A DNA stretch of 52,394 nucleotides, from IMG/VR virus record IMGVR_UViG_3300044642_000273, positions 1-52,394 of that record. One strand, 5' to 3'. Of this stretch, positions 3,199 through 43,828 are shown piece after piece (position 1 is the stretch's first letter; each line of letters opens with the position of its first letter). Below the pieces are notes generated by a model. The model saw only the letters and a list, made by a program, of their open reading frames with translations, was not told where the DNA came from and did no database searches. The stretch is from a virus (lineage: Duplodnaviria; Caudoviricetes). A program made the position numbers and the translations under genes.

Positions 3199-3948
3199 CT
3201 ATTCGTAAACAACAAATGAAACACCAGAAGTTGGGTCTTGACCAATGAAGAAATCAACTGAAGTTGTAGATCTTCCATTGACATGCCAAGGGCGAGAATA
3301 TTGATCAACAGGAGTATTGCCACCTATTACTACAGCATAATCTGCAGTTTCCATTGGTGTGGTAAATGTTACACTAATAGGATTAGATCCACTAACACTT
3401 GAAATATTAAACCCACGCATAATCGTTCCATTTAAAATATATCCCCATGCTTTAGCACCAGGAGCTGACGCACCAACAGGACCTTGGATACCTTGCTCGC
3501 CTTGAGGACCAGCAGGACCTTGAGGACCGTCTGCACCTACAACAGGACCAGCATTATCCCAAACAGATGTTGTGCTGTTCCAGATGTGAGCTTCACGAGT
3601 ATCGTTAGCAACGTAAACGTCACCATGAGTCTTCTCAGTGATAGCATCTAGTTCTGAAGCAGTTGCAATGCGACCGACATAGCGTAGACCAATACCTTGA
3701 GGACCTGTAGGACCTACTTCACCTTGGATACCTTGCTCTCCTTGCGGACCAGCAGGACCACCAGGACCAATAGGACCAATAGGACCTTGCGGACCAGCAG
3801 GACCTTCTGGCCCAGGAGGACCTTCCAAGCCTTCAACAGGATCAGTAGCTAAGTCCCAAGCGTAACCGTTAAACCTATACTTCACCCCAACAGGGGACGT
3901 GTAAACTTGTCCACCTGTAGGATTAGCAGGAAAATCTAGAATTGCCAT
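3199..3948 (-). CDS. collagen-like fibre protein
   Basis: Two Gly-X-Y tracts; N-terminal MAILDFP...YRFNGYAW shared with 1571..3184. Confidence 0.75.
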
Positions 3949-4178: not shown

Positions 4179-6299
4179 TTAGATTGGGAAAGTGTACTCG
4201 AAGATATCCTGTCCAGATACGTGGAAGAATGAAGTTCTCAAGTTAATCATTGTAATGGTTGTACCGTCGTCACCAGTGCCCCAATAGCTAGAGTTGATGA
4301 ACACTGTTACAGTATTGTCTGCGTTACGTCTTGCAGCCATCTGCCATCCGTCTCCAGCAAACTGTACTAAACCTGGCTCGCCCCAACCTAACTTAAATAA
4401 GTTTTCGCGACGAACAGGATACATAGTACCAACGTCTGTTAGTGTAACCTGACCAACCTCGTTCCATGTAGAATAAGGACTGCTTGAGTTACCCATCACA
4501 AGTTCTCCTGGTGTTGCAGGACCAGACTGAGCTGCCCAATAACCAATTGTAGCTACGTATTGACCATCAACTAAATCGATAGACCAACCAGTGTCAGCTT
4601 GATAGCCTTCAAAACCAGTACTCATGTTGTGTAACTTCTTAGAGTTCATTGTCACACTGTTACTTGGTGCGCTAGATGCTGAGTTACCAGATGTATTAGT
4701 AGCGTAAACTGTAAATGTATATGCTTGACCATACTCGAACACATCAGTAAATGTGAATGTACCAGAGTCTGCAGTTTCAATTGTAGAAGTCATTCCACCT
4801 GGTTCTGCAACAGCAGTGTAAGATGTAATAGTCTGTCCACCGTTGTAAGCAGGTGCTGTGTATGGAACACTAATAGATGTCACAGATACAGTAGCTTCTC
4901 CAATAGTTGGAGTATCAGGAACTGACCAAGTCAATACTTCATTACTTGCAGCAGAACTTGCACCAGCACCGACAGCGTTGTTAGAGTGTACAGTGAATGT
5001 GTATCTTGTATTTGGATCTAATCCTTCTACAGTGATCGTGCCAGATTCAGACTGAGACAAGGTGGCAGTTAATCCACCAGGACTTGCTACAGCTGTGTGA
5101 GACACTACACCATCAGCACCAACATCAGCGTGAGCAGTGTAATCTACAGAGGCACTTGTGGTACCAGTAGTACGTGCCTCACCAATCTGAGGAGGACCAG
5201 CTTCTTTATCGTATTTCAATATTTGCCAGAATGATAAACCATAAACTTCGAGTCTGTCGAATGTTGTGTTGAATCTCATTTGGCCAGTAACTGGGCTTTC
5301 AGGACGTTCTTCGGTAGTGCCCATAGGCATCTTACCACCAGCTCCTGCGCCACCTACCAATACGCCAGTGTTGACCCATGAGCCTTCACCGCTAGTAGGA
5401 TTAATGTACCATACATACATGTTACCAGAGTCTGACTCGAACCACACTTCACCTTCAAGAGGTTCAGCAGGAGGAGCAGAGTCGATAGTTGTTGTAGTAT
5501 TACCAGTCTCGCCTTGGGGACCGACAGGACCTTGAGGACCATCTGTTAGATCGCCTGTAACTTTGATGATGTAGAGTAGAGAGTAGTATGGAGGTAAGTT
5601 TGCACCTACACCAGACACACCAGCTTCGTCTACTGAAATACCTGTACCAGCAGCTAATGCGCCAGCAGGTCTAGTTGTTGATCGCTGATCGTCACCACCA
5701 GAATCGCCTACATCGCCCCAACTGTTAGGAGCTTCACTACCACCAGAACCGATAGTAAACGCAGTATCGTGAGTGTGCGTAGGATCAGTTACAGAGTGGC
5801 TATGTGCTACGACTGTTGCGTCAGCACTACCACCAGTTGAACCAATAGGGTATGTTACACTAGATCCGATTACGAATCTATCGCGTAAGTCTGGACGACC
5901 ATCTTGACCGTCGCAAGGCATCCAACCTAAAGGTACACTTTCAGCAGTACCAGACCAAATAGCAATAGTGCCAATTGGTGTACCACCAGGAGCATTGGCT
6001 CCAGCAGGACCGACAGGTTGAGCGGATTCAATCCACTGCCCACTACCATCTGCATTGAGATAGTAGATAAAATTCTTTCCTGTATCAGATTCAAACCAAA
6101 CCTGACCAGATTTTGGATCTTGAGGAGGTACGTCTTGTACGATGACGCCACCACCGTTTCCAGTGGCAGCTGTCAACTGCACAGTCCCGTCTGGGAAAGC
6201 CAGAGGACCTGGCAACTGTGCTTCTTCGTCTATCGCGAGTTCTCCAAGAGCCACGACTTTACCTTCAACGTCATAGATTGGTTTTAATAAAATTGCCAT
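4179..6299 (-). CDS. tail fibre protein with collar-like domain and FN3 domains
   Basis: PIGTIAIWSG...GWMPCDG...PDLRDRFVIG...NLPPYYSLLYIIK collar-like domain; two VWFESD repeats; two FN3-like repeats. Confidence 0.75.
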   Translation of the reverse strand: MAILLKPIYDVEGKVVALGELAIDEEAQLPGPLAFPDGTVQLTAATGNGGGVIVQDVPPQDPKSGQVWFESDTGKNFIYYLNADGSGQWIESAQPVGPAGANAPGGTPIGTIAIWSGTAESVPLGWMPCDGQDGRPDLRDRFVIGSSVTYPIGSTGGSADATVVAHSHSVTDPTHTHDTAFTIGSGGSEAPNSWGDVGDSGGDDQRSTTRPAGALAAGTGISVDEAGVSGVGANLPPYYSLLYIIKVTGDLTDGPQGPVGPQGETGNTTTTIDSAPPAEPLEGEVWFESDSGNMYVWYINPTSGEGSWVNTGVLVGGAGAGGKMPMGTTEERPESPVTGQMRFNTTFDRLEVYGLSFWQILKYDKEAGPPQIGEARTTGTTSASVDYTAHADVGADGVVSHTAVASPGGLTATLSQSESGTITVEGLDPNTRYTFTVHSNNAVGAGASSAASNEVLTWSVPDTPTIGEATVSVTSISVPYTAPAYNGGQTITSYTAVAEPGGMTSTIETADSGTFTFTDVFEYGQAYTFTVYATNTSGNSASSAPSNSVTMNSKKLHNMSTGFEGYQADTGWSIDLVDGQYVATIGYWAAQSGPATPGELVMGNSSSPYSTWNEVGQVTLTDVGTMYPVRRENLFKLGWGEPGLVQFAGDGWQMAARRNADNTVTVFINSSYWGTGDDGTTITMINLRTSFFHVSGQDIFEYTFPI

Positions 6300-6311
6300 G
6301 GCTCAAACTCC

Positions 6312-7340
6312 TTAGATAAACTTAATAGGCTTCGATGCACCGTTTGTATCGAAGAACGGTAGTGCTTTCATTGCAACTTCTTGAATAGCGTCTTGAACTG
6401 TAGTAGACTTCACACCTTCAACTGGAGCATACTTAATAGCAGAAGCTACGTGAGCATCTTCAGTAGCGTTGATGTGGTCTTCTAAAGCGTCAGCATTAGC
6501 AGAGTTATTCTGTAAACCAACGATAGCTGTTTGAAGTTGATTCAAAGAACCTTGAACTTCAGTAGAACTAAGAATTGGACCAACGTTAAATGTGCGAACT
6601 TGTACAGCATTGTAATCGCCATCAGCAGGAGTTACAACACCTGAACGGCCATTGAAAGCATTTACATAATTACGACCTTCGATGTTCTGAACTTGAGATT
6701 CAATAACTCCAAGAGCGATGTCAGCTTGATCTAAAGCAGCTTGAACGTCTGTTCCTTTTAGAATCTTATTACCATCTGGATTGTAAGTTGTACCAGAAGC
6801 TACTTGAGCACGAGCTGAGTAAGCCAAATGAGTCCACTTAGCTGTACCTTCGTTGTAGATCAACCAGTCGCCAACTTCAACTGCAACACCAGCAGCGTCG
6901 CCAACAGTACGTTGACCAGCTGTGTTGAAGATGTAGTAAGGAACAACACCAGTGCCAGCTGCAGGTTTTGCAGGATCAGCGCTATTGAAGCCTAATGTGC
7001 CAGAGAACTTAGTAGCACCTTGAACGCTAGAAACTTGATTGGTAATTGCAACGAGTGCATCTTGAACGTTAGATGAACCAGCAACTAACGGTGATAATGT
7101 AACTTGGCTACCTGTGTAGTCGCCTGTTGCTGGTACAACATTACCTTTACGACCTGCGAAGCCTGTTACGTTTTCTGCAGGAATGTATGCTGTAGTTTGT
7201 TGCGTGCCATCTTCGAATTCGAGAGGACCAGGAACAATGGCAACGTCGCCTTGTACGAGTTCGCCTAAGCCAACTACTTTGCCTTCGATGTCTCGAATCG
7301 GTTTAATTAAAATTGCGGATACGTTTGTTGGATCTGCCAT
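6312..7340 (-). CDS. fibre/structural protein
   Basis: Repeated V..F.GR.G.V.P..GDY and ..VQ.AL.. motifs typical of phage fibre shafts. Confidence 0.65.
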   Translation of the reverse strand: MADPTNVSAILIKPIRDIEGKVVGLGELVQGDVAIVPGPLEFEDGTQQTTAYIPAENVTGFAGRKGNVVPATGDYTGSQVTLSPLVAGSSNVQDALVAITNQVSSVQGATKFSGTLGFNSADPAKPAAGTGVVPYYIFNTAGQRTVGDAAGVAVEVGDWLIYNEGTAKWTHLAYSARAQVASGTTYNPDGNKILKGTDVQAALDQADIALGVIESQVQNIEGRNYVNAFNGRSGVVTPADGDYNAVQVRTFNVGPILSSTEVQGSLNQLQTAIVGLQNNSANADALEDHINATEDAHVASAIKYAPVEGVKSTTVQDAIQEVAMKALPFFDTNGASKPIKFI

Positions 7341-8101: not shown

Positions 8102-11100
8102 GGTGTATACCTCACTAACAATGCACCTTCAGGATAATCTGCAGCAGCAGGCTCAGTAGCTCCGTCAGCAACAGATACTATCGTTGCACCCGCTTTAGAG
8201 TCTACATACTGCTTAGTAGCAGCCTGTAACGCTGTAGTAGGGTCTGCAGGTAACACAACAGGTACCAGTGATGTATGCTCAGTGGAATCAAATTTAAACT
8301 TTTGAGAGCCACCTGTGTAAACACCGATACCAGTCCCAACTTTTGACATGTAACCGCCACCATTACCAAACTGAATTCCAATGCCAGTAGCAGGAGTAAT
8401 CAAAGGTTTATAGGCATAGATACCTGTACTACTTGCAGCCAATAAATCTGTGGCACCAAACCTAAACGACACGCCACCGTTGCCAGTGAACATTGAGTAG
8501 GTATTAGTAAAGTTCATTGCCGTGCCAACAGGCATAGTGATTGGACCTGTAAGTGTGCCACCAGCTAGAGGTAAGTAAGAACCAGATGCGCCACCACCCG
8601 CAGCTACTTTGTCATCGACATACTTCTTAGACGCAGCATGCTCATCTAATGTAGGAGCCACGAGGATTCTAAGTGGAACTGTTGCAGCGACATAATCTTC
8701 GTTGAAACCTAAGACAGATTTTGTGCCATAACGGAGAGCAGTGCTAGTCAAAACGGCTTGGAAATTAAAGCCATTGTCCATCATGAATGCAACAGCACCA
8801 TCGCCTTTAACGTTGATAGGACCAGTCATGTCTCCACCAGATGTTGGTAGATAGCCTGTGGGTTTTGAAACGTAAAGTAATCCGTCAGTGCCTAGTGTCG
8901 CAGTATTGTCTGCATCAGCAGAAACTGCAGTAGGACCAGCAGGACCAGTTTCACCTTTAGGACCAACAGCACCTTCAGGACCAGCTTCGCCTTGTGCACC
9001 TGTTGGACCAACGATAGGACCAGCATTCTCAAACGCAGAAACACTATCAGACCATACCCATGCATCGCCAGTCGCATCGACGATATACATATCGCCTTGC
9101 ACAGCAGTAGCAGGTAAGTCACCAACAGTCGCTACACGACCTTTGAATGTGATACCTAAACCAGGAATACCTTGATCACCTTGGTCACCTTTAGGACCGA
9201 CATCACCTTGCGGACCTTGTGGACCCATAGGACCTTCAGCACCAGCAGGACCAGCAGCACCAACTTCGCCTTGCGGACCAGTGTTACCGATGTCACCTTT
9301 AGGACCAACGTCGCCTTGTGGACCGAGATCGCCTTTAGGACCCATAGGACCTTCTGCTCCATCTTTACCATCAGCTCCTGCAGGACCAGTTTCGCCAGTG
9401 TCACCTTTAGGACCTTGAGGACCTTCAGCACCATCTGCACCAGCAGGACCAACTTCGCCTTGGATACCTTGTGGACCAACGTCTCCAGTATCGCCTTTAG
9501 GACCAACTGCACCATCAGCACCAGCAGGACCAGTTTCACCGATAGGACCTTGAGGACCTACTTCACCAGTGTCACCTTTAGGACCAACTTCGCCTTGGAT
9601 ACCTTGAGAGCCTTGAGGACCTGTTTCACCTTTTGGACCAACGATCTGACCAATGTCAATGTATTGAGCATCAGTCTCAGACCATGCATAAGCATTACCA
9701 TTCTCATCTACTACGTATGTGTCACCTTGAGCAGCACCAGTTGGTAAGTCTGCGACTGTAGGCACGTGACCTTTGAGGTTGATGCCCATGCCAGCAGGAC
9801 CTTGCGGACCAGCAGCACCAGCAGGACCTTCAGCGCCATCTGCACCAGCAGGACCTGTAGGACCTTGTGGACCAATAGGACCTGTATCGCCTTGCATACC
9901 GTCTTTACCTGGTAGACCAGCTTTACCTTGTTCGCCTTGTGGACCAGCAGGACCCATAGGACCTGTAGGACCCGCAGGACCAGTATCACCTTTAGGACCG
10001 CGAGGACCCATAGGACCTTGTGGACCAACAGTACCTTCGCCACCACCGCCTGTACCACCACTAGAAGTGGCAGCAGAGACCATGAGTTGCCAAGAGTCGC
10101 CAGAAGCGATCACTGCATCAGCACTTAGGAATTCTTGAGGAGATACTCCATTAGAATCCTTCTTAGATACGTATAAACTATTTGAATATGAAACTACATC
10201 ACCACGTTGGTAGGCACGATTAGAATTCCATAGACCTTTGAAGTCATTGATAGGTAATTCGTATGTGTCGTACTGAGTCAACCATTGTTTAGTAACCATG
10301 TCCTGAATCAAGCTGATTACAGGTAGGTCAAAAGAAATTCTAGAACCGTCGCTCTTGATGAATGACATCTCTTCAGAGTCGTAATCATACTGTACGTCTA
10401 GGATTTCTGATGCGTCTAAACCTTTCTCGCCTTGGATACCTTGCGGACCCATATCACCTTTGGCACCACGTTCACCACGCTTGACTAGAAGATTCCAGTC
10501 AGGAGTAGTTCCAGGCTCACCAGTAGGTTGGGCTTTGTTGGCTATCCAAGCAGACCCCGACGACGAGATGACGACGTCAAGTCTTTCATAAGTTGCGTCA
10601 GGACTCCAAGCCTTACGAAACTCGAAACCACGAAGTACAAGTGAATAAGCTGTACTATCACCAGGAATGCTATCACTATCTCGATTGGCAACATAATATC
10701 TTCCATTGTGTTCGATCCAAGAGCCTGCTTTAATCACAGTATCTGGAGTCCATTGTTGAACTTTACTTCTGTTAGCTTCTGCGATAGCCATTTCTAATTG
10801 AATAGATTTGGTCTTGGCTACAGCAATGGCTTCGTCGAATTCTTCGATCTGCCCAGCAACAGCCGCTTTAGACATTTCCACTAGCTCACTAGTAGCACTT
10901 TCTGCTTCTTCTAATGAGGCAGACTTAGTTACTTCTAACTCGTCTTGGAATGCCTTGATTTGGTCTTCGGCAGTAGCTAAGAATTCGCTTACTGTCTCTA
11001 ACTTTTCGTCTACTTTCGCCTGAGTGTCGCCAAGCGCTAATTCTAGTTGCTGACTAATGCTACTATTCACTTCAGAATAGAATGTCTCTAGTGACTTCTG

Positions 11101-21819: not shown

Positions 21820-23787
21820 TTACTCCGATTTCTCAAACTCTAAGTGGTCAGTATTTGGAGGAATCGTTACTGAAGGAGGACGACCGTTAACGAATCCTGG
21901 GAAGCGCTTTACTGCGTCATTTATTTGTTTAACTTGTTTATCGTACATAGCTTTTGTATATGTTTTGTATTTGTAACCTGTGCGTTTACTTCCACCAACT
22001 CGGACAGGAGAACCGATTTGACGTGCTAACTGCGCCTTCATTTGACGTGCTAGGTCGTTAATAGGATCTGCTTTGTGAATCTTAGTGTAGGCGCTTGCTA
22101 CGGTTTCTCTAAGTTTAGGTAACTGAGATGTTGAAGTAATAGCGAACGCGTCATGTTTAGACATAACATTCTTAAGTCTAACAGCTACTTCGTCTTTTAC
22201 AGCAGCATCAAAAGATTGAACGAATAAAGGCATAGCAGAGCTTTTAGACTGCTGCGTATTCACTTCTCCAGGAGTGCGAATAGAAATCTTAAATGGATTA
22301 CCGTTTTGATCCTTGAGAGCCACTCGTGTAGACACCATATCGTGTTTCTGAAAGGCCATTTTGAATCCGTTAATAGGATTGGTGTAGACAAAGTTATCAG
22401 GCATTAGCTTGGCAACTTCGTTAAAGCCTTTTTCAAACTTAGCGATTGGAGTTAAGTCAAAATTATTAACCAACTTGGTAGCTAACGATTTAGCTTTTTC
22501 TTTTATAGCTGGAGTAGGGATATTCTTAGAATCGTTTCCATAACCTGCTTTATCTAGAATGGTTTGCGTCGTACTTAAGATAGTTTGACCAGGACGACCG
22601 CCATAAAGGCGTGGAGTATCAACAGCTTTAACAACTTTCTTGATATTTCCTTTATCTTTCATGAGCGTTCCAATATCTAAATCATCAGCAGTGATCTCAG
22701 TACCACCGTTTTTCTTTTGATTAAGAATCGCGTAATAGGGTTTCTCAGGATGCTCAATACCTAACTTCTTCGCAGTGGCAATTGCAGGAGTCTCTTTAAC
22801 CTTGCCGCCCCGTCCCAGTTTTACAGAATCAAGCAACTCTTGATTTCCAGTCATAGCCCCTACGTTAGCACGAGCTGATGATGTGGCGTCATACCATTTA
22901 TGATTTGGATATGTTTCTCCAAGAGTTTTCTCTCCCGCTTTGCGAGCAGCAGCGGTGATAGAAGAAACCTTTGTCTTTAAAAGCTCAGGTGCGTTCTTAT
23001 CGTTAGAATGCACTCGACCTTGAGGACCTAACTGTGAATTAGGAAAGGTTTTACGGCGTAACTCTAGAGACGCAAACGCTGTAGAAGAAGGATCTAATTC
23101 AAACTTTGTAGGGCGAGTATTTGATAAACTCTGTGTAATGGTGAATCCGCCGCCTTCTTTTTCAGCAGCATTTCTGCCTTTAGTAGTTAAACTGATGGCA
23201 TGCGACGTTTGAATTTCTATTTTAGCGTCTATACCTAATGCTCGTACCGTACTTCCACGCATAGGTTTGCCAGTGATTGGGTTTACTACCCTATTGCCGG
23301 TAGTCGCATCCGCATAAGCCCAATGACCGCCTTGCATTTTGCCGCGGCGTTCTACTCTAGTGACGTTTATAAGTCCTTCAGTCTGCAGACGAGACAAAGA
23401 ATCGCCAACAGCACGTGATAATTGCTTACCTTGCAATGATCCTGTATGCTGTGAAATAATGGCGGCTATGTCAGAGGCTTGAGAAGCACCTCGTTCGTTT
23501 AGAAAACGACCCATCTCAGATACGCGCATTGATTGCGTTATAATCGCTCGTCTAACTAATGAGTCTTGTTCAGAGCGCGAAAGTGTGTGGAAAGGAGCGG
23601 TACCAGAAGAAGAACCTGCTACCTTAGCGCCTACAGCGTGAGAAAATCCTTTACCACCCCAATGAGAAGCAAAGCGACCTTTTTCGTCACGATACGGATT
23701 ATAGCCTCGACCTCCAGTTTTACCGCCTTTTCCAGCGGCTTTCTCTATCACATCTAAAGTGACGTTGAAATACTTTCTCCAATCCAT
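21820..23787 (-). CDS. diverged single-subunit (T7-like) RNA polymerase-like protein, candidate virion RNAP
   Basis: Ordered motifs GPQGRVH (DxxGR-like), YDATSS (motif A), KKVVK-x7-YG (motif B), PLFVQSFDA (PNFVHSxD-like), KHDAF (motif C); N-terminal NPYRDEKGRF motif. Confidence 0.7.
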   Translation of the reverse strand: MDWRKYFNVTLDVIEKAAGKGGKTGGRGYNPYRDEKGRFASHWGGKGFSHAVGAKVAGSSSGTAPFHTLSRSEQDSLVRRAIITQSMRVSEMGRFLNERGASQASDIAAIISQHTGSLQGKQLSRAVGDSLSRLQTEGLINVTRVERRGKMQGGHWAYADATTGNRVVNPITGKPMRGSTVRALGIDAKIEIQTSHAISLTTKGRNAAEKEGGGFTITQSLSNTRPTKFELDPSSTAFASLELRRKTFPNSQLGPQGRVHSNDKNAPELLKTKVSSITAAARKAGEKTLGETYPNHKWYDATSSARANVGAMTGNQELLDSVKLGRGGKVKETPAIATAKKLGIEHPEKPYYAILNQKKNGGTEITADDLDIGTLMKDKGNIKKVVKAVDTPRLYGGRPGQTILSTTQTILDKAGYGNDSKNIPTPAIKEKAKSLATKLVNNFDLTPIAKFEKGFNEVAKLMPDNFVYTNPINGFKMAFQKHDMVSTRVALKDQNGNPFKISIRTPGEVNTQQSKSSAMPLFVQSFDAAVKDEVAVRLKNVMSKHDAFAITSTSQLPKLRETVASAYTKIHKADPINDLARQMKAQLARQIGSPVRVGGSKRTGYKYKTYTKAMYDKQVKQINDAVKRFPGFVNGRPPSVTIPPNTDHLEFEKSE

Positions 23788-23797
23788 TTATAACTCC

Positions 23798-25441
23798 TTA
23801 AACGATCATCGACTCAATGTCAGTTAGTGCCAAGTTGGCATCACTTAATAAATACACAGACATCGCTAAAGCCACTAAAGGGTCGATGCGTTGGCTTGAC
23901 TTAGATTTATCTAATTTTCTATTACCTGTTGGATCGGAAATAACGATCGCATTAGATGCTGCCATGTTTAACAATGGATGAGAAGCATGCCGTAGTAGTT
24001 TCTGTAGTAACAGAGACTCAAGTCCTTCTAGTCGCAACGAGAAATCTTTGAAGCCTTGGCCAACAGGCAACCATTCAGAGTCTTGTGCGAAGTTAGCCTT
24101 CTCAGCAGCAACTTTGAAGTCATCAATACGCCATCTATCGAATGACACAGAAGCGATATCCCAACCTGCAGTACGCAAGGCTAACTCTTCAGCTAACATC
24201 TCATAGTTTAAATGAGAGCCTGGAAGAGCGATAAGGAATCCGTCTTTGGCCCACTGATCGTAAGGAACGCGGTCTGTTAGAGATCGGTCCATTAGAGTAT
24301 CTAGTGGAGAAAAAACGAATGGTGTAGAATGCACTTCACCTGTTTCTGGGTCACGTACGCTAGCAACAGCAGCTGTCAAGTCGTTTCTTGAGGATAAGTC
24401 AAGACCGATATGCACAGGGTATTTTGTGAATAACTCTAAATCAACAGGACCGTTACACTCCTTCCAAACGCTTGGAGAGACGAATAATGTGAGTAATGAT
24501 ACTCTTTGATTTAGTAATAGGTTTCTTGCGGCTGCTTCGGCCGCGGGCATGCGGGCTGCTTTCTCTAACTGTTGGCGTAAGTCTTCAGAAGAGCGAAACA
24601 CACCTAATGCCGGATTGGCTTTAATCCATTGTGATTCGTCAAGAAGGTCACAGTCTTTCTCCGCCTCGTAAACGTGGCAGACAACTGTAGAGTCTTCGTT
24701 GCGTTCAGCATCGTCAATCCACATACTTAATAAATCAGAATCAGAAGCAGCTTGCGTCGAAATAACGAAAAGCAAAGGATCCTTATGCGCTCCTTGGGAT
24801 GTCGTGATCGCTTCGATAAAAGCGTCTCGAGGTCCCACAACCTGACCAACTTCATCTAGTACGGCAATGTAAGGCGATAAGCCTTGCGCTGTCGAACCAT
24901 CTTTTGCTAGTGCTTTGTATTCTGTATTGGTGGTGATGCCTTTTAAACGCTTTCCTGATGGAATAACTTGGCATCTTTTTGACATGTTAGGATTTAATCC
25001 TATCATCTTAGACATAGCGGTGAAAAGAATCGCCGCCTGTTCGCGTGATTGGGCACCTGACACGATCTGAGCATTCTTTGGCGCTAAAGGGCCGATGATA
25101 GACGCTAGTACGAGTGGTGCAATAATTGTTGATTTGCCGTTTTTACGTGCAATAGATAGAATTGCGGTTTTCGTTAGACGATTACCTTCACTATCTTTGT
25201 TGTCGTAAATAGAACGGATAAAAGCTCGCTGAAAAGGGAGCAATGTGATAGGCGTACCTACCAATGCGCCTTCTGGGACTAGACATTCTTTATGTACGAA
25301 CTGCATGACTTTCTCAGCGTCTGTGAGTAAATCCCACTTGATTTTCGAGAAATCTCTATCTCGAGGGATTGGACCGCTTTTTATAGCGGCTTGGACTTCA
25401 GGAGGAAAATCATACCATTCTGGTGTTGTGTAATCAATCAT
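23798..25441 (-). CDS. terL: terminase large subunit
   Basis: LLPFQ, ARKNGKS Walker A, AVLDE Walker B, ISTQ coupling motif, GLDLS and RIDP.VA nuclease motifs. Confidence 0.96.
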   Translation of the reverse strand: MIDYTTPEWYDFPPEVQAAIKSGPIPRDRDFSKIKWDLLTDAEKVMQFVHKECLVPEGALVGTPITLLPFQRAFIRSIYDNKDSEGNRLTKTAILSIARKNGKSTIIAPLVLASIIGPLAPKNAQIVSGAQSREQAAILFTAMSKMIGLNPNMSKRCQVIPSGKRLKGITTNTEYKALAKDGSTAQGLSPYIAVLDEVGQVVGPRDAFIEAITTSQGAHKDPLLFVISTQAASDSDLLSMWIDDAERNEDSTVVCHVYEAEKDCDLLDESQWIKANPALGVFRSSEDLRQQLEKAARMPAAEAAARNLLLNQRVSLLTLFVSPSVWKECNGPVDLELFTKYPVHIGLDLSSRNDLTAAVASVRDPETGEVHSTPFVFSPLDTLMDRSLTDRVPYDQWAKDGFLIALPGSHLNYEMLAEELALRTAGWDIASVSFDRWRIDDFKVAAEKANFAQDSEWLPVGQGFKDFSLRLEGLESLLLQKLLRHASHPLLNMAASNAIVISDPTGNRKLDKSKSSQRIDPLVALAMSVYLLSDANLALTDIESMIV

Positions 25442-27104: not shown

Positions 27105-27755
27105 CTATACTACGAGGTGGGCGTGGCGTGGGTACACGTGTAGAGAGGCCGCATTCCATATCATCTCACCTAACTCAAGAGTAGGGTAAGTGGTACGTAG
27201 GTCGGTCAACGCTTGAGCGTGTACGTAGTCATGCCATGCTTTATCTCCTTTATAGCCGAAGATAGCGTCGTTAGACCTCATGTAAACAAAGTAGTACAAC
27301 TTATCGTTACGAATAAACAATTGAGTAGAGTAGGTACAGATCATGTCTTTCATACCTAATCTAGTACTATCGGTATGTATAGACGGTCTAGTGTAGATCA
27401 TGTTACCCTGTCTACTATACCTATCTTTCTTTAGTGTATTGATTACATAATCGTATTGACTACCGTTCTCTTTACTCCAGATACACCAGCCGTAGTTACT
27501 ATTGACATTACCCTCTGTAGAGGCTATACTCCGCCAGATACTAGGTATAGGAGCAGGGATGTCCTGTATAGATAGACTCTGGCTCTTATACCACTGTAGC
27601 TCTCTAGCATTCCACTCCTGATTAACAGTACCAAAGATAGCTGTTTCATCTGCTACAAAACTAACATTCAATAGTTCTAACATACCTGTTTCATCAGGTT
27701 GTACAGTCCTAAAGAAGTTTCTAATACTTTCAACATTATAAGTTGTAGTCAACAT
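27105..27755 (-). CDS. dCMP hydroxymethylase (T4 gp42-like, thymidylate synthase fold)
   Basis: NSNYGWCIWS, SRQGNMIYTRPS, GMKDMICT (catalytic Cys), MRSNDAIFGYKGD.AW with Asp at the dCMP-specificity position, WNAASLHVYPRH; closely follows T4 gp42. Confidence 0.85.
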   Translation of the reverse strand: MLTTTYNVESIRNFFRTVQPDETGMLELLNVSFVADETAIFGTVNQEWNARELQWYKSQSLSIQDIPAPIPSIWRSIASTEGNVNSNYGWCIWSKENGSQYDYVINTLKKDRYSRQGNMIYTRPSIHTDSTRLGMKDMICTYSTQLFIRNDKLYYFVYMRSNDAIFGYKGDKAWHDYVHAQALTDLRTTYPTLELGEMIWNAASLHVYPRHAHLVV

Positions 27756-28375
27756 TATTCTTTATCCTTAAAAGGAGTACCTGATTGAGGCCGATCATCA
27801 CCCTGTTTATTGATATAAGAGTGTTCGATCATAAATAAAATGTTACAAGCGGCATGAGCTAAATGAGAAAGTTTAGTTTCTTCATCTAAATCTTCGCCAG
27901 ACCAGAATTGCATTAAATGCCTTTGTGTGGCAGAATAACATCTTGACCAGGCAATCATTTCGCCTTCTCTCCAAGAATTTGCACCATACTTATCAGCACC
28001 GATAGACAATACTTCGGCAATGTCTTTTAATGGACGTACAGGAAGTAAATCTAATCTTACTTTGCCAGAATCAAACTTTGGCGCTTTACCTTCGATAAAC
28101 TCAACTTTATCTTTAGTTTCAATTTTGCATTCTCTAGTTGTCATAATACTTTCTTTATTTGATGTTGGGCTCCCAAGCAACTCTTGAGTTGGGCTCCTAG
28201 GCGTCTTAGCGCTACTAGGCATAGGCTCAGTAATCGCCAAGACTGTAGGCCAAGGATGAGTAGCCTTGAGTTCGTCTTGCTGTCTCTGATTCTCTAACTC
28301 ATTCTCTCTACGAGCTACGTAATCTGCCAAAGTCATATCTAGACGATAGGCCTTTCTTTTATCACGGAAGCTCAT
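27755..28375 (-). CDS. dATP/dGTP diphosphohydrolase-domain (DUF5664-like) protein
   Basis: KFDSGK.R.DLLP, GADKYG.NSW..G, RH...F..GED.DEE..L.HLAHAACN; probable start MSFRD at 28375 overlapping the upstream stop. Confidence 0.85.
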   Translation of the reverse strand: MSFRDKRKAYRLDMTLADYVARRENELENQRQQDELKATHPWPTVLAITEPMPSSAKTPRSPTQELLGSPTSNKESIMTTRECKIETKDKVEFIEGKAPKFDSGKVRLDLLPVRPLKDIAEVLSIGADKYGANSWREGEMIAWSRCYSATQRHLMQFWSGEDLDEETKLSHLAHAACNILFMIEHSYINKQGDDRPQSGTPFKDKE

Positions 28376-28785
28376 TCTACATTCTCCATAGCCAAAGTAC
28401 GCTGGACTAAGATTTGAGTATGAGTGTCTTCTGGACCTTTCCATCCTTCTGGCTTTACTAGGTCGGTTTTAAAACCACCTCTCTTGTTTCCGTTCTGACC
28501 AACCTCTTTGGCGAGGTTACAAGCCATCACAGCATCAAAGCCACTTTGGAGTGGAAAACCATGTTTGTCTAAACTACCTACAGCGAATACTATCAAGTCT
28601 AACAAAGCATCATACTGCTCTACTAGAGTATCGGCTTCGGCATACTCGTTTAATTCTTCTTGCATTGCGGCTATTCTAAACGCCTTCTCTTCGTAAGGGA
28701 GGTGTCTAGGCGGACCGTTATAATCGATACCAAACTTGGTATGCATGGTATTCAAGGCGGTTAGTAGGTTATTCTCTGCTGTCAT
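28372..28785 (-). CDS. MazG-like / PRA-PH family NTP pyrophosphohydrolase
   Basis: EELNEY...DALLDL.VFA.G, V..CNLAK, LVKPEGW.GP. Confidence 0.8.
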   Translation of the reverse strand: MTAENNLLTALNTMHTKFGIDYNGPPRHLPYEEKAFRIAAMQEELNEYAEADTLVEQYDALLDLIVFAVGSLDKHGFPLQSGFDAVMACNLAKEVGQNGNKRGGFKTDLVKPEGWKGPEDTHTQILVQRTLAMENVE

Positions 28786-29204: not shown

Positions 29205-29367
29205 TAAGTTATTGATTTGTATACCTTTTTATCCCAAGGAGCTAAGTTATTGATTTTAAACACTATTTTATAGACACCGAAGGTATACCGACAAACGATG
29301 GAAAAGTGCTCTAAGTTATTGATTTTAAACGAATTGTGAAATCCAGGCTAAGTTATTGATTTTAAAC
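29205..29367. promoter_or_regulatory. four TAAGTTATTGATT repeats matching the IHF consensus
   Basis: Copies start at 29205, 29243, 29312, 29349; reverse complement AATCAATAACTTA fits WATCAANNNNTTR. Confidence 0.6.
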
Positions 29368-32860: not shown

Positions 32861-32902
32861 CTCAACTATTACGTAAGTTATTGATTTTAATAAGGAAATT
32901 TT

Positions 32903-36632: not shown

Positions 36633-36692
36633 ACTCCGTATCGCTACGGAGACCCAACTATAACGTAAGTTATTGATTATAAAGGACTTATT

Positions 36693-37032: not shown

Positions 37033-37305
37033 ATGGCTGGAGAGCAAGCAAGTAGTGTATCAACGCGAGAATTTAAAGGCTATAAAGTAAAGCCTCATAA
37101 TAAACCACCATCATCGGTATATTTCAATCAAATTAAAAAGTTTATAATTGAGAGATATCCAACGATGTATACTATATGCAAAGAACGGTATGGAGAAAAA
37201 GAGTGGTGGGAGATTGTGTATAAAGAAATGACAGAATACACTTTCGACTTTGAAGACAATCAAGCAAGATTTCTATACGCAAAGTACGTAAAGGAGTTTA
37301 AATGA
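37033..37305 (+). CDS. hypothetical protein
   Basis: AAGGA RBS; 90 aa. Confidence 0.6.
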   Translation: MAGEQASSVSTREFKGYKVKPHNKPPSSVYFNQIKKFIIERYPTMYTICKERYGEKEWWEIVYKEMTEYTFDFEDNQARFLYAKYVKEFK

Positions 37306-37784
37306 ATATTTTCTACTTAGCAGCAGATCCGTATGTGGCAGCATCTATGCATTGTGATAAACACGTTTGTAAAATGATTATTGAAACAGCACAAATGTTG
37401 TCATCAGTGCAAGCAAGGTATGGATCAGACAATACTCCTTACAAACCTACTCACGTAAAACATCCATCAACGTTATGGGCAGGTGATTCTGCTTCTAACT
37501 ATAAATGGCTAGTGAGCTTAGGTAAAGGCTTATGTAATGAATACACTAGACGGTATGGCAAAATCCATAAGACGCAAGAGATTATAGACAAATTGTCGGA
37601 ATCTCCTGATGGTCTACCGGATGTTGGATATACTAAGATGCCACAGTGTATGCCTGAAGAGTATAAGACTGAAGATTCTATTACTGCTTATCGTAATTAT
37701 TACATTGCTGATAAAATGCGATTTGCAAAATGGAAATATACAGAAACACCAGCATGGTGGCCAAGTGTAACTGAAGAGGCTTGA
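37302..37784 (+). CDS. pyrimidine-dimer DNA glycosylase / endonuclease V-like family protein
   Basis: MNIFYL, HCDKHV.KMI.E.AQMLS, YKPTH..HP, EY..RYGK.H, AYR.YY motifs. Confidence 0.7.
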   Translation: MNIFYLAADPYVAASMHCDKHVCKMIIETAQMLSSVQARYGSDNTPYKPTHVKHPSTLWAGDSASNYKWLVSLGKGLCNEYTRRYGKIHKTQEIIDKLSESPDGLPDVGYTKMPQCMPEEYKTEDSITAYRNYYIADKMRFAKWKYTETPAWWPSVTEEA

Positions 37785-37815
37785 ATAGCCGAAACGCCGA
37801 GATGGCGTCTTACAC
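37765..37815 (+). ncRNA. hammerhead ribozyme 6 (type I, CUGAAGA core)
   Basis: GUGUAA-CUGAAGA-GGCU(UGAAU)AGCC-GAAA-CGCC(GAGAU)GGCG-UC/UUACAC; predicted cut after 37809. Confidence 0.93.
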
Positions 37816-37832
37816 ATTATTAAAGGAGGAAG

Positions 37833-39389
37833 ATGAGTACAGTAAAAGAAAAGTTGTACGTCCTTCGACGTGAAAAATCGGTCTTAGAGGCCGACTTGCG
37901 ATCTCTAAAAGCGAGACGTGAGAATGCCAAGCGCGCTAACAGACAGGCTATTGACGTAGGTCCTGATCCGTTTTACTATCGCGTAGGTATGGACTTTCGC
38001 GGTCGCCTTTACTATAAAGGTGCCCACTTAAATCCACAAATGGGTGATGATGTAAAGGTAGTATTGACGTTAGCCAATAAGAAACCTCTAGGCACTAATG
38101 GACTCCATTGGTTATGTTGGGGAGTCGCTTCTGCGGCTGGCTACGATAAAGCCGCTTTTGGTGCACGTGTTACATACACTCGTGAGCATTTGCAAGAGAT
38201 ACGTAAGGCAGTAGAAGACCCATCAACATCAGATTATTTTATAAACACTGTGATGAAAGATGGTGAGCCTGCGCTATTTCTTCAACGCGCTAATGAGTTG
38301 ATTAATGCGATAGATAGTGGTGATAGCGCTTCATACGAGACTGATGTAACGATCGCTATGGACGCTACATGCTCTGGTTTGCAGATTCTATCAGCAGTCG
38401 CTAAGGATCGTCAAGGTGGTAGTTTAGTAAACATCACTGAAACTCCTGAAACGCAGACTGAAAAGGCTGATGTGTATGGCACAGTTGCAAAACTAATCTT
38501 GAAGAAGTATTCACAACTTCCAGAAAACTATTTTGCACAATGGGTAATTCTAAATGGAATACCTCGAAGATTTACTAAGCGTCCTGTTATGACATTACCT
38601 TATTCAGCTACTATTCGTAGTGCTATCGGTTATGTCCAGACAGAGTTGCAAGGTAATTCAGAAAAAGGTATTGCACCTTATCCTTTACCACCATCAGAAG
38701 AAGATAGACGACGTTTACAACTATCAATTAAATCTCTAATGGGTAAAGAAGAATCAGGCGAAGTAAAGTTGGACGATAATTCACTTTATTACGGTATGGC
38801 AACTCTTATTGCGCGTGACATTCACGGCGTATGTAGAGAAACTATTCCTGCCGCAATGACTCTTCTTGAATTCTTTAAATCTACACCAAAGAAGTTATAC
38901 GATCACGCTATTTGGAATACTCCTGATGGCTTATATGTAAAACAGCGCTATGGCGTTGAAGAAGAGAGTCGTACTAAGTATACGCTAACATGGGTAGACC
39001 AAGATACTGGTGAGATTTGCCAGAAACTTATCCAACGTAGATATGCGTATATCGACCCAAGTGATAGAGATAGAAGTAAAGCGTCTAACGGTATGCCTCC
39101 TAATTGGGTGCACTCTTTAGATGGCACATTAGTGCGTAGAGTTATGCTAAGCGCTCCTTTTGAGATTATCGCCATCCATGATTCATTCGCTGCACATCCT
39201 GCAGACTGTGATGATTTGGCTAGAATCTTACGTGAGCAATTCGTATGGATCGTTGAGCAAGAGCCTTTGCAACGCTTAATCGATCAGCTTAACGCGCAAG
39301 TTGGAGAAGAGGTCTTTAAGTCAGAGCCACTTATGTTAAATACGTGGAATCCTAAAGAAGCCTTAAACTCTGAATTTCTATTTTGTTAA
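37833..39389 (+). CDS. T7-like RNA polymerase, C-terminal (catalytic) subunit
   Basis: DFRGRLY, DATCSGLQ (motif A), R-x3-K-x7-YS (motif B), PNWVHSLDG, IHDSF (motif C), C-terminal FLFC; lacks the N-terminal domain. Confidence 0.95.
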   Translation: MSTVKEKLYVLRREKSVLEADLRSLKARRENAKRANRQAIDVGPDPFYYRVGMDFRGRLYYKGAHLNPQMGDDVKVVLTLANKKPLGTNGLHWLCWGVASAAGYDKAAFGARVTYTREHLQEIRKAVEDPSTSDYFINTVMKDGEPALFLQRANELINAIDSGDSASYETDVTIAMDATCSGLQILSAVAKDRQGGSLVNITETPETQTEKADVYGTVAKLILKKYSQLPENYFAQWVILNGIPRRFTKRPVMTLPYSATIRSAIGYVQTELQGNSEKGIAPYPLPPSEEDRRRLQLSIKSLMGKEESGEVKLDDNSLYYGMATLIARDIHGVCRETIPAAMTLLEFFKSTPKKLYDHAIWNTPDGLYVKQRYGVEEESRTKYTLTWVDQDTGEICQKLIQRRYAYIDPSDRDRSKASNGMPPNWVHSLDGTLVRRVMLSAPFEIIAIHDSFAAHPADCDDLARILREQFVWIVEQEPLQRLIDQLNAQVGEEVFKSEPLMLNTWNPKEALNSEFLFC

Positions 39390-39397
39390 GGAGTTAC

Positions 39398-40285
39398 ATG
39401 AATTTACATCAAAGAGAGATTGAATTAGAGAATGCTAAGTTGGCAAAGGATCGCCACTTAGAGATTCGTCAGAAACTTGACTCTATTTCAATCGAATTCT
39501 CGAAAGAGATTATTGACTTAAGCTTTCACATTGATAAATGGAGAAAGGTAGATAGAAAACCTAGAGAAGTTGAAAGACTAGCTTATGCTAGCTTGTTAAA
39601 TAAAGTGCCTTCTATCGTTCTAGCAGAAAACGTTGTTCGTGCTTTATTCGAATCATACATTAACGTAGACATTGGAGCACCTTTAACGTATGCTACTGTT
39701 GTTAACAATAAGTTAATTCAGCAGAGATTACGTAGTTTACTTCCTAACGAGGAAACAGCAATACCGATACAGTTTAAATTCTCTTTAGTAGATTTACTAG
39801 TATCCCGTACTGTTAGATATCTTCCTTCATTATTTATCGATGTTGAAAGTAGAAAACTTGGTACTCCAGACTCCATCGAACTCACAAAAGTCGCAAAAGA
39901 GCGTTTAGGCAAGATTTCTATTCAGGAATTGTTAACTGACGTTCCAATGAGATGCAAACCTGCGAAATGGACTTCAGTATTTCATGGTGGTTTCTTAACA
40001 TCAGAAATGCAGCGTGGAAATCCACTGATTGGGTCTCGTTATCACGATTATAAAGAATTGATTGAAATCGATAAGTCTTTGCAAAGTAATCCTGAAATTT
40101 TAGAATCTGTAAATAAAATGCAAAACGTAGCATTTAAAATCGATCCTAACTTTCAGAAATATCAAAAGATTATTGATGATATTCGAAAATCGAAGATAAA
40201 AGAGATTCAAACTCAAATCGACAAGAAGCGAGAAGAGATTTCACGATGTGAAAAGGAGTTAGATTTGAGTATCCCTATTAGATAG
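39398..40285 (+). CDS. T7-like RNA polymerase, N-terminal subunit
   Basis: HQREIELE, IELT, PMRCKPAKW....GGF, VNKMQNVAFKID match T7 RNAP N-terminal motifs (QLALEHE, IELA, PCVVPPKPW...GGGY, INIAQNTAWKIN); ATG 39398 behind AAGGAG. Confidence 0.82.
   Translation: MNLHQREIELENAKLAKDRHLEIRQKLDSISIEFSKEIIDLSFHIDKWRKVDRKPREVERLAYASLLNKVPSIVLAENVVRALFESYINVDIGAPLTYATVVNNKLIQQRLRSLLPNEETAIPIQFKFSLVDLLVSRTVRYLPSLFIDVESRKLGTPDSIELTKVAKERLGKISIQELLTDVPMRCKPAKWTSVFHGGFLTSEMQRGNPLIGSRYHDYKELIEIDKSLQSNPEILESVNKMQNVAFKIDPNFQKYQKIIDDIRKSKIKEIQTQIDKKREEISRCEKELDLSIPIR
40265..40278 (+). promoter_or_regulatory. TTGAGTATCCCTAT, candidate phage-RNAP promoter for the replication genes
   Basis: 14-bp identity with the two minus-strand repeats at 28993 and 29172; about 50 nt upstream of the SSB start. 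Confidence 0.5.
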
Positions 40286-40329: not shown

Positions 40330-40884
40330 ATGGCAAAACTAAAAACTGCAATTACACCGAAAGGTACTTTATCATGGCCATACATTGGTCGTCCTGATAC
40401 AAGATACAATCCTGAAGGTGTCTATAAGACCAGCTTAATTGTACCGGCAGCTGAAGCCGAATCGCTGATGGAAACATGCAAACAGATGTTTATTGATGAG
40501 TATGGTAATGCCAAACTCGCCAAAGCGAACATGCCTTTCTCACCTGAAGTCGATGACCAAGGTAACGAAACAGGCAACATCGTGTTTAAGTTTAAATCTA
40601 AACGACAGCCAAAACTGTATGACGCTAAAGGTAAAGTAATTACTAAAAACCTTCAAGTTGCATCAGGCACAGTGGCTAAAGTCGCTACAGCGATTAATCC
40701 TTACGCTACAGGTATCAACGTTGGTGTTTCACTTTATTTGAACGACGTTCAGATTATCGAGTTAGTAGAATACGGCAAAGGCAGCCTATTCGGACAAGAA
40801 GATGGTTTCGAGTTCGACGACGATGGTGAGCCTAACGAACCTTCTACTACTGGATCGAAGAGTGAAGAAAACGCGGACTTCTAA
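40330..40884 (+). CDS. single-stranded DNA-binding protein (T7 gp2.5-like)
   Basis: TPKG...P....PD...P.G.YK, FKFK, P..YDAKG, GVSL.L..VQIIELVE, acidic tail ending in DF. Confidence 0.9.
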   Translation: MAKLKTAITPKGTLSWPYIGRPDTRYNPEGVYKTSLIVPAAEAESLMETCKQMFIDEYGNAKLAKANMPFSPEVDDQGNETGNIVFKFKSKRQPKLYDAKGKVITKNLQVASGTVAKVATAINPYATGINVGVSLYLNDVQIIELVEYGKGSLFGQEDGFEFDDDGEPNEPSTTGSKSEENADF

Positions 40885-43371: not shown

Positions 43372-43782
43372 ATGAGCATTAAATCGCAAATTATTATGTC
43401 AAGCCGAGAGCATTACAAGGCTCACATTCGTAAACATGTCACTAACATCAACGCAATTCTTGCTAATCCAATCGCTATTCCTGAGCACACAGACATCATG
43501 GACTCGGTTGAAAAAGAACTGTTTGTCATTAGTGAATACGAAAGCAAATTACAAGCATTAGACAAATACATTAAAGATGAGTCTGATGATAATGGTAATA
43601 ACGGCAACAATGGTAATGGCAACGGTGGTAATAATGGAAACAACGGTAATAATGACACAAGCACTACTACCGAATCTTCTACAACTACCGAGACTAATGA
43701 GACTTCAACCACTCAACAAGAAGCCACCATTACAGTCGGTGCAGGCTCTCATTTAACTATTGAGAGACCTTTTACAGTCTAA
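43372..43782 (+). CDS. helical protein with Asn/Gly- and Thr/Glu-rich low-complexity tail
   Basis: AGGAG RBS; TAA stop lies in stem I of hammerhead 8. Confidence 0.7.
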   Translation: MSIKSQIIMSSREHYKAHIRKHVTNINAILANPIAIPEHTDIMDSVEKELFVISEYESKLQALDKYIKDESDDNGNNGNNGNGNGGNNGNNGNNDTSTTTESSTTTETNETSTTQQEATITVGAGSHLTIERPFTV

Positions 43783-43828
43783 CTGATGAGTCCTACATGG
43801 ACGAAACCGTAGTGATACGGTCTTAGAC
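43777..43828 (+). ncRNA. hammerhead ribozyme 8 (type I)
   Basis: GUCUAA-CUGAUGA-GUCC(UACAU)GGAC-GAAA-CCGUA(GUGA)UACGG-UC/UUAGAC; predicted cut after 43822. Confidence 0.95.

Follow-up and report, generated by a model that had tools for sequence, protein, structure and literature searches.

Can a T7-type RNA polymerase (RNAP) be encoded by two genes that stand in the reverse of the order in which their products follow each other in the single-chain enzyme? This question is raised by two adjacent plus-strand genes of the IMG/VR virus record IMGVR_UViG_3300044642_000273 (52,394 bp, linear class, CheckV completeness estimate 41%), the whole of which was analysed here and is referred to as the window. 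The initial annotation, made from the sequence alone, had described these genes as the catalytic and the N-terminal halves of a T7-like RNAP, placed in permuted order and broken in the thumb. As a whole, the locus is best explained by two genes for the two subunits of one T7-family RNAP, from which the enzyme is reassembled, and we regard this explanation as likely; judging by the sequences, the heterodimeric single-subunit-type RNAP is real, old and probably functional. The locus comprises the following features, where the C-part and the N-part are the products of the first and the second gene, respectively.

37822–37829, plus strand: Shine-Dalgarno sequence AAAGGAGG of the C-part gene, read from the sequence
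37833–39389, plus strand: C-part gene, 518 aa, the catalytic back half of a T7-type RNAP
37833–37964, plus strand: codons 1–44 of the C-part gene, the N-terminal helix, taken as the descending thumb helix
C-part residues: second thumb helix at about 1–44; DFRGR at 54–58; motif A with D177, motif B with K249 and Y257, and motif C with H449 and D450, all in the palm and fingers; C-terminal end FLFC
39387–39397, plus strand: junction, with TAA (39387–39389), GGAG (39390–39393) and a 4-nt spacer before the ATG
39398–40285, plus strand: N-part gene, 295 aa, a shortened N-terminal domain
N-part residues 146–162: beta-hairpin, aligned with the intercalating-hairpin region of T7 RNAP
N-part residues 252–291: long C-terminal helix, taken as the ascending thumb helix

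Both open reading frames (ORFs) lie where the initial annotation had placed them, each with a ribosome-binding site of its own, and the helix sequences quoted there for the two ends are present, as is DFRGR in the 518-aa product. The interpretation given in it held in every part open to a check.

Homology of the two parts to T7 RNA polymerase

The catalytic half is encoded first and the N-terminal half second, as had been claimed: the C-part matches the family PHROG 414 'RNA polymerase' over profile positions 348–816 of 816 (E 5e-101), and the N-part matches it over positions 210–326 (E 9e-12). The C-part is also matched by PF00940 (E 2e-60). The profiles of both halves were compared by hhalign with T7 RNAP, taken from NC_001604; residues 45–518 of the C-part were aligned to T7 residues 412–883, up to the last residue (E 2e-35), and its residues 1–44, which precede T7 residue 412, were left unaligned. 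The motif residues are aligned to their T7 counterparts, the C-part segment at about 377–405 sits at the position of the T7 specificity loop, and the aromatic C-terminal foot (F-x-F-x) is kept, with FLFC opposite the final four residues of T7 RNAP in the alignment. Invariant in all seven aligned C-parts are DFRGR, D177, K249 and Y257, H449-D450, the PNWVHSLDG block and the terminal FLFC, which reads FLFS in one further copy (L011). Thus, the fold, the motifs, DxxGR and the C-terminal foot are those of the single-chain RNAPs of T7, the Autographiviridae and mitochondria, from which the enzyme of the window differs in its two chains instead of one and in the reversed order of the genes.

The homology of the N-part to the RNAP N-terminal domain, an alignment that the initial annotation had named as a point to be checked, follows from three sources: the PHROG 414 match given above, the hhalign alignment of its residues 97–262 to T7 residues 181–344 (E 2e-5, probability 77%), and the matches to PF14700 (RPOL_N, the domain homologous to T7 residues 1–325), found at E≤0.001 in 13 of the 13 members of the N-part family, with 1e-10 as the best value. 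The weak points of this assignment are that the N-part of the window itself scores below the Pfam cut-off of PF14700 (23.4 vs 30.1 bits), and that a phmmer search with it against the PDB reaches T7 RNAP only at E 0.059. Compared with that of T7 RNAP, the N-terminal domain lacks about 80 residues. The start codon was taken as ATG 39398, which agrees with the N-termini of 12 aligned relatives; TTG 39383 is also open. When the N-part is modelled by itself with AlphaFold2 (AF2), the mean predicted local distance difference test score (pLDDT) is 71.6 and the terminal helix 252–291 is 40 residues long.

The break point and the junction

The unaligned ends are the N-part tail 263–295 (33 aa) and the C-part head 1–44 (44 aa). 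Since the aligned region of the N-part ends at T7 residue 344 and that of the C-part starts at residue 412, these 33 + 44 residues stand for T7 residues 345–411, within the T7 thumb, which we take to be residues 326–411; the stretch amounts to 77 residues vs 67 in T7, being about 10 longer by arithmetic alone. Read from the alignments, the RNAP is cut at the tip of the thumb, between two native helices, so that the break is located where the initial annotation had put it, and in the complex model described below the two ends are paired as two helices.

The second Shine-Dalgarno sequence, GGAG, starts right behind the stop codon TAA of the C-part gene. The gap between the two genes is 8 nt, and 6–14 nt across the related loci, which suggests translational coupling. 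Contigs bridging positions 39380–39400 without joints were found in four of the four lake-water sequencing runs examined:

X2 record 4: 38145–40059
X3 record 13: 39326–39565
X4 record 20: 39066–39567
X5 record 27: 38814–39573

X2 may be the source sample, and hence three of the four bridging runs count as independent.

Relatives, selection and phylogeny

Searches with the N-part and its family alignment yielded nine distinct IMG/VR loci and six metagenome loci, after merging of the duplicates (L005 with L003, and L006 with L004); the identities of L017 and L018 equal those of L007, and these may be redundant. Both parts are present in 14 of the 15 loci (nine from IMG/VR and five from metagenomes), the remaining one, L021, being a 1.3-kb fragment that begins inside the N-part, and the C-part gene lies directly upstream of the N-part gene in all 14. 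The permuted order is, thus, no artefact, as the initial annotation had held, being seen in all these loci and bridged by the contigs of the four runs. N-part identity to the window lies between 85% and 41% and C-part identity between 99% and 49%, and both ORFs are intact in every one of the 14 loci, including those of 41–52% identity. The ratio of nonsynonymous to synonymous substitution rates (dN/dS, Nei-Gojobori, pairs with unsaturated dS) is 0.025–0.089 for the C-part and 0.065–0.145 for the N-part; both genes are under purifying selection.

The 15 N-part homologues are all stand-alone proteins of 290–322 aa, 59 columns are invariant across 13 N-parts at identities down to about 41%, and no fused or longer form was found among 5599 candidates, a result that the tool itself grades as weak evidence. 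Among GenBank phages, the N-part has no relative but a weak match in Burkholderia phage Paku (E 2e-4), and the C-part is less than 35% identical to every record. Among 1.84 billion cluster representatives, the C-part finds its best matches in stand-alone proteins of 521, 498 and 528 aa (identities 76%, 40% and 33%), whose DxxGR motif is at residues 51–54, and the nearest full-length RNAPs (about 800–820 aa) are only 33–40% identical to it.

A phylogeny against the Autographiviridae and the RNAP II of phage N4 had been proposed in the initial annotation. A first, quick maximum-likelihood tree (54 rows, 485 columns) of eight stand-alone C-parts and 46 full-length RNAPs, including that of T7, placed the eight stand-alone C-parts in one clade apart from the full-length enzymes, with a support of 98 by the Shimodaira-Hasegawa-like approximate likelihood ratio test (SH-aLRT). 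For a second tree (42 rows), N4 gp16 and two short matches were added and every second full-length match was kept; the support of the stand-alone C-part clade in it is 96 without P0023, the most distant stand-alone C-part. In this tree N4 gp16 falls outside the split clade, with a branch length (4.1 substitutions per site) that makes its position uncertain. A single old origin of the thumb split, in which the permutation in P0018 and P0023 is not included, is the simplest reading of these trees.

Model of the complex

The structure prediction for the N-part with the C-part, likewise proposed in the initial annotation, gave an interaction prediction score from aligned errors (ipSAE) of 0.85 (median of three runs) vs 0.00 for the best of three controls, with the two terminal helices paired; for comparison, 58 of 80 solved complexes attained that mark, as did 2 of 110 mismatched pairs. 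At least 84% of the contacts are shared between the runs, the partner pLDDT is at least 72, and the modelled interface of 278–302 contacts includes the ordinary packing of the N-domain against the palm. The modelled thumb contacts join C-part residues 4–36 to N-part residues 255–288 with a period of 3–4 residues, the contact residues on the C-part side being listed below.

C-part contact residues (model): 4–5, 7–8, 11–12, 14–15, 18–19, 21–22, 25–26, 28–29, 32, 35–36

T7 RNAP structures belong to the training data of such structure predictors, and therefore the score shows the likeness of the pair to T7 RNAP and is not a proof of binding; the assembly of the subunits is so far supported by modelling only.

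Comparison with known divided polymerases

To our knowledge, N4 RNAP II is the only established kind of natural heterodimeric T7-family RNAP. It depends on the cofactors gp1 and gp2 and on a recruiter that binds single-stranded DNA. The pair of the window resembles it, according to the available part of PMC4496689, as a natural T7-family RNAP of two polypeptides encoded by adjacent genes on one strand, with motifs A, B and C in the larger subunit. The N4 layout given in the initial annotation is right, in that gp15 precedes gp16 in the N4 record and carries DX2GR (PMC4496689, available part), and gp16 corresponds to the C-part from about residue 92 onwards: gp16 residues 8–264 are aligned to C-part residues 92–446 (E 9e-13), and gp15 residues 225–266 to C-part residues 43–84 (E 3e-4, probability only 38%). 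The N-part comes first in N4 (gp15 at 4603–5412, then gp16 at 5460–6674) and the order is reversed here; the N4 enzyme is broken in the palm, behind DX2GR, at a point about 90 residues further downstream than here, where DFRGR is in the large subunit. Because both the break point and the gene order differ, the split of the window is a different, independent fission, in agreement with the initial annotation. The thumb and N-domain of the N4 enzyme are described as truncated in the same part of PMC4496689, and the thumb region here has about 77 residues. Another case in which a phage single-subunit-type RNAP is naturally divided over two polypeptides is given in the available part of PMC3821669 for the Alteromonas phages AltAD45, whose virion RNAP homologue is split into two adjacent genes; however, that protein is a giant N4-type virion RNAP in N-then-C order, whereas the pair here is T7-like and cut in the thumb.

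The closest analogue in layout is an engineered T7 phage, whose RNAP was supplied as reverse-order fragments with antiparallel zippers and which was viable, with a low initial fitness and later adaptation (PMC6009699, available part). As in the window, the C-terminal fragment lies 5' of the N-terminal one, with a short spacer and a start of its own, and the assembly of the fragments is aided by an antiparallel coiled coil (PMC6009699, available part). That phage is, however, artificial, and its break is the beta-sigma breakpoint of Segall-Shapiro et al. with added SynZIP zippers, not the thumb (PMC6009699, available part); this breakpoint is taken to be the residue-601 site named in PMC4299498. 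The bisection map of T7 RNAP given there shows that antiparallel SynZIP zippers increase the activity more than 10-fold, and the word 'thumb' is absent from the available part of that text (PMC4299498). By contrast with the engineered phage, the split of the window has native helices at the cut and is old and conserved; by analogy, two native antiparallel helices may do the same job as the added zippers. No description of a permuted or thumb-split natural RNAP came up in full-text searches of 8.1 million PMC papers and 0.36 million bioRxiv preprints, a scope that leaves subscription journals and supplements outside.

A mosaic segment in the N-part gene

One interior segment of the N-part gene has a history different from that of its surroundings.

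39602–39901, plus strand: mosaic cassette within the N-part gene, 300 nt, residues about 69–168

The cassette has 59–70% nucleotide identity to the related locus L001, the adjoining intervals have 90% and 97%, and the rest of the 6 kb around it is mostly 95–100% identical to L001. Between L002 and L004, the proportion of nonsynonymous differences (pN) is 0.007 in the C-part and 0.142 in the N-part. From these comparisons, the cassette looks like the product of localised recombination. Two sequence types of this segment occur among the relatives, and it is aligned to T7 residues of about 150–252.

A second polymerase-like gene

21820–23787, minus strand: a further gene for a T7-family RNAP-like protein (654 aa), highly divergent, flanked by the large terminase gene on one side and by the protease and capsid genes on the other

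The 654-aa protein matches PHROG 414 weakly (E 6e-9) and PF00940 with 21.7 bits, just below the cut-off of 22; no sequence match to it was found in the PDB and none in the GenBank phages. Its motifs A (YDATSS), B (K..YG) and C (HDAF) are invariant in 13 homologues, and its AF2 model (pLDDT 78.5) has T7 and mitochondrial RNAPs as the top Foldseek matches (E 2.5e-7, query-normalised TM-score (TMq) about 0.3). The order of large terminase, 654-aa RNAP-like gene, protease and capsid is kept in L023, L024, L026 and L027, and, as far as they reach, L022 and L025, which are shorter contigs, are consistent with it. Between L023 and the window, the RNAP-like protein is 47% identical, the large terminase 83%, and the capsid protein 98%. 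The gene was not found in five related records, all of which are fragments, so that this is uninformative. The 654-aa protein could be a packaged or late polymerase.

Hammerhead ribozymes and candidate promoters

Eight hammerhead cores are present in the window, all on the plus strand and in the early/replication arm, vs 0.01 expected by chance; six of the eight fold as canonical three-way junctions, with stem I sequences that differ and yet are complementary (covarying).

30016, 30631, 31975, 34474, 36588, 37771, 43248 and 43783, plus strand: hammerhead cores, between genes
37763–37818, plus strand: type I hammerhead, overlapping the stop of the upstream gene 37302–37784; associated with the enzyme genes, not part of the enzyme

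Only the one at 43777–43828 is above the Rfam gathering score (36.9 bits). The hammerhead 37763–37818, with the core CTGAAGAG...CGAAAC at 37771–37795, folds as a three-way junction (z −2.7) and is itself below every Rfam threshold; its cleavage is predicted after GUC 37807–37809, which would leave a 23-nt leader before the ATG of the C-part. The relatives have hammerheads at corresponding positions: in nine loci (L002, L003, L004, L007, L008, L009, L010, L017 and L018), a core precedes the C-part start by about 60 nt, and none was found between the two RNAP genes in any locus. Phage and prophage genomes with several gene-flanking hammerheads have been described before (PMC3088659, available part); those of the window probably cut a long early transcript into units.

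A sigma-70 promoter scan gave no more hits than shuffled sequences (53 vs a mean of 46.7), and TATAGGGATAC is not enriched (10 vs 12.6 expected). The 18-mer AAGTTATTGATTTTAAAC has five copies vs 0.16 expected, all on the plus strand (29244, 29313, 29350, 32875, 36667); three exact copies lie within 125 nt at the start of the plus-strand arm (29244–29367), and the copies at 32875–32892 and 36667–36684 have two mismatches. By eye, it lacks a proper sigma-70 −10 partner and may be a phage promoter or operator. No common motif was seen by eye in the intergenic regions of the minus-strand arm.

Proposed mechanism and alternative explanations

Under the preferred explanation, an ancestral single-chain gene would have been divided where it codes for the tip of the thumb hairpin, its pieces coming to lie as the C-part followed by the N-part, most likely by tandem duplication and the subsequent loss of the 5' part of the first copy and of the 3' part of the second, or alternatively by fission and a later rearrangement, the route being conjectural in either case. 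Given the 8-nt gap and a Shine-Dalgarno sequence for the N-part that adjoins the stop codon of the C-part gene, both genes would probably be translated from one mRNA, in roughly equal amounts. In the model, the subunits are predicted to reassemble via the normal interface of the N-domain and the palm and also via the thumb, to which each chain would contribute one helix, the two lying antiparallel in the manner of a built-in zipper. The C-part would supply all the catalytic motifs and the N-part the promoter-melting hairpin region, and it is proposed, from the catalytic motifs and specificity-loop position in the former and the hairpin in the latter, that the holoenzyme would transcribe phage genes from its own promoters. 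With the order reversed, re-fusion by simple deletion or read-through would be impossible, and this may explain the persistence of the split across a deep clade.

Several observations weigh against this explanation. Residues 172–216 of the N-part model have a pLDDT below 50, a fold search with the isolated model gave no PDB match at E≤0.001, and its best fold match is MarR-like (E 0.07), the T7 RNAP chains following at E 0.17 or above. The first 96 residues of the N-part are aligned to nothing in T7, and promoter recognition may consequently differ. The complex score may come from the predictor's memory of T7 RNAP structures. In the second tree, the support of the split clade drops to 78 when P0023 is included, and a search of IMG/VR for the neighbourhoods of P0018 and P0023 gave only distant RNAPs (24–27% identity) or nothing. 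No phage promoter consensus is assignable in the window, no RNA run is among those containing this stretch, and, given the second RNAP-like protein, the split enzyme need not be the main phage transcriptase.

An unlikely alternative is that the C-part is self-sufficient and the N-part a dissociable, sigma-like factor of initiation and specificity, required at promoters only and perhaps exchanged between strains. All the catalytic motifs and the specificity-loop region do lie within the C-part, the cassette gives the N-part a history uncoupled from that of the C-part, and engineered T7 fragments act as exchangeable 'sigma' parts (PMC4299498, available part); but the engineered system is inactive with any fragment missing (same source), the cassette covers only the interior of the N-part and not the whole gene, the 8-nt coupled layout suggests synthesis at 1:1, and the modelled interface is large (its 278–302 contacts including ordinary N-domain/palm packing). 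It is very improbable that the pair is a decaying remnant, with transcription left to the host polymerase or to the second RNAP-like protein (21820–23787, minus strand): that protein has invariant motifs A, B and C and no promoter was found for the split enzyme, but decay agrees poorly with ORFs intact in all 14 loci, also at 41–52% identity, with a dN/dS of 0.03–0.15 and with invariant catalytic residues.

Scarcely credible is an artefact of assembly or annotation, or a rejoining of the halves by a split intein or by a hammerhead-circularised RNA. Metagenome assemblies can be chimeric and hammerhead ribozymes do flank the gene block, but the junction is common to independent contigs from IMG/VR and from JGI/ENA metagenomes and to four runs. 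A split intein was ruled out, the 33 + 44 residues at the break being thumb sequence with no space for intein halves. Circularisation of the RNA was ruled out as well: no further hammerhead follows until 43248, three genes further on, and, as stop codons close both ORFs, a circular RNA would be unable to give a fused N-to-C frame.

The subunits of a reassembled T7-family RNAP, which we continue to prefer, may be set in a wider scenario, doubtful as a whole, in which the lineage of this uncultured lake phage independently evolved an N4-like programme of several polymerases. Transcription would begin with a compact, fast-evolving RNAP encoded among the head genes and perhaps packaged and injected, and the permuted RNAP would take over; the reversed order would be a ratchet keeping the split, with the cassette-bearing melting subunit swappable independently of the catalytic one, and the hammerheads would cut long transcripts into units, one of which would start 23 nt before the polymerase genes.

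If the two-subunit explanation is true, the locus encodes a second, independent heterodimeric T7-family RNAP with another break point and an inverted gene order. The tip of the thumb may, on this evidence, be a place where a split is tolerated in nature and where an antiparallel helical 'zipper' is already built in, which would be of direct use for the split-T7 RNAP biosensors and resource allocators, which today need added synthetic zippers. The locus would also be the natural counterpart of the engineered reverse-order T7 phage, by which it could be tested whether a reversed order stabilises gene fission evolutionarily.

Genomic context

The sequencing runs containing the window stretch are all labelled lake water or 'metagenome', and no clue to the host was obtained, neither the N-part family nor P0018 having a relative among the genome contigs of 185,579 species. 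The minus-strand arm (124–28785) carries the genes for tail fibre, portal, ribonucleotide reductase, major capsid protein, protease and large terminase, and the plus-strand arm (from about 29670) those for ligase, a gp2.5-like single-stranded DNA-binding protein (SSB), endonuclease I, primase-helicase, DNA polymerase and exonuclease.

40330–40884: gp2.5-like SSB gene, the next after the RNAP gene pair

The genome is a mosaic of modules, with a lambdoid-like terminase and T7-like replication genes: the large terminase (23798–25441, minus strand) has about 50% identity to its counterparts in lambdoid siphoviruses (for example, HK75, mEpX2 and Cronobacter phage ENT39118), and the T7-like replication set consists of the gp2.5 SSB, endonuclease I, a fused primase-helicase and a family A DNA polymerase. 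The ORF 27755–28444 (minus strand) matches phrog_2252 'endolysin; inhibits RNA polymerase' (T7 lysozyme-like, E 1e-31) and scores better to the dATP/dGTP pyrophosphohydrolase family phrog_801 (E 7e-40); if it is a T7-lysozyme homologue, it might be a regulator of one of the two phage RNAPs. The tail-fibre genes contain long collagen-like GXY repeats at 3443–3840 and 8915–10050.

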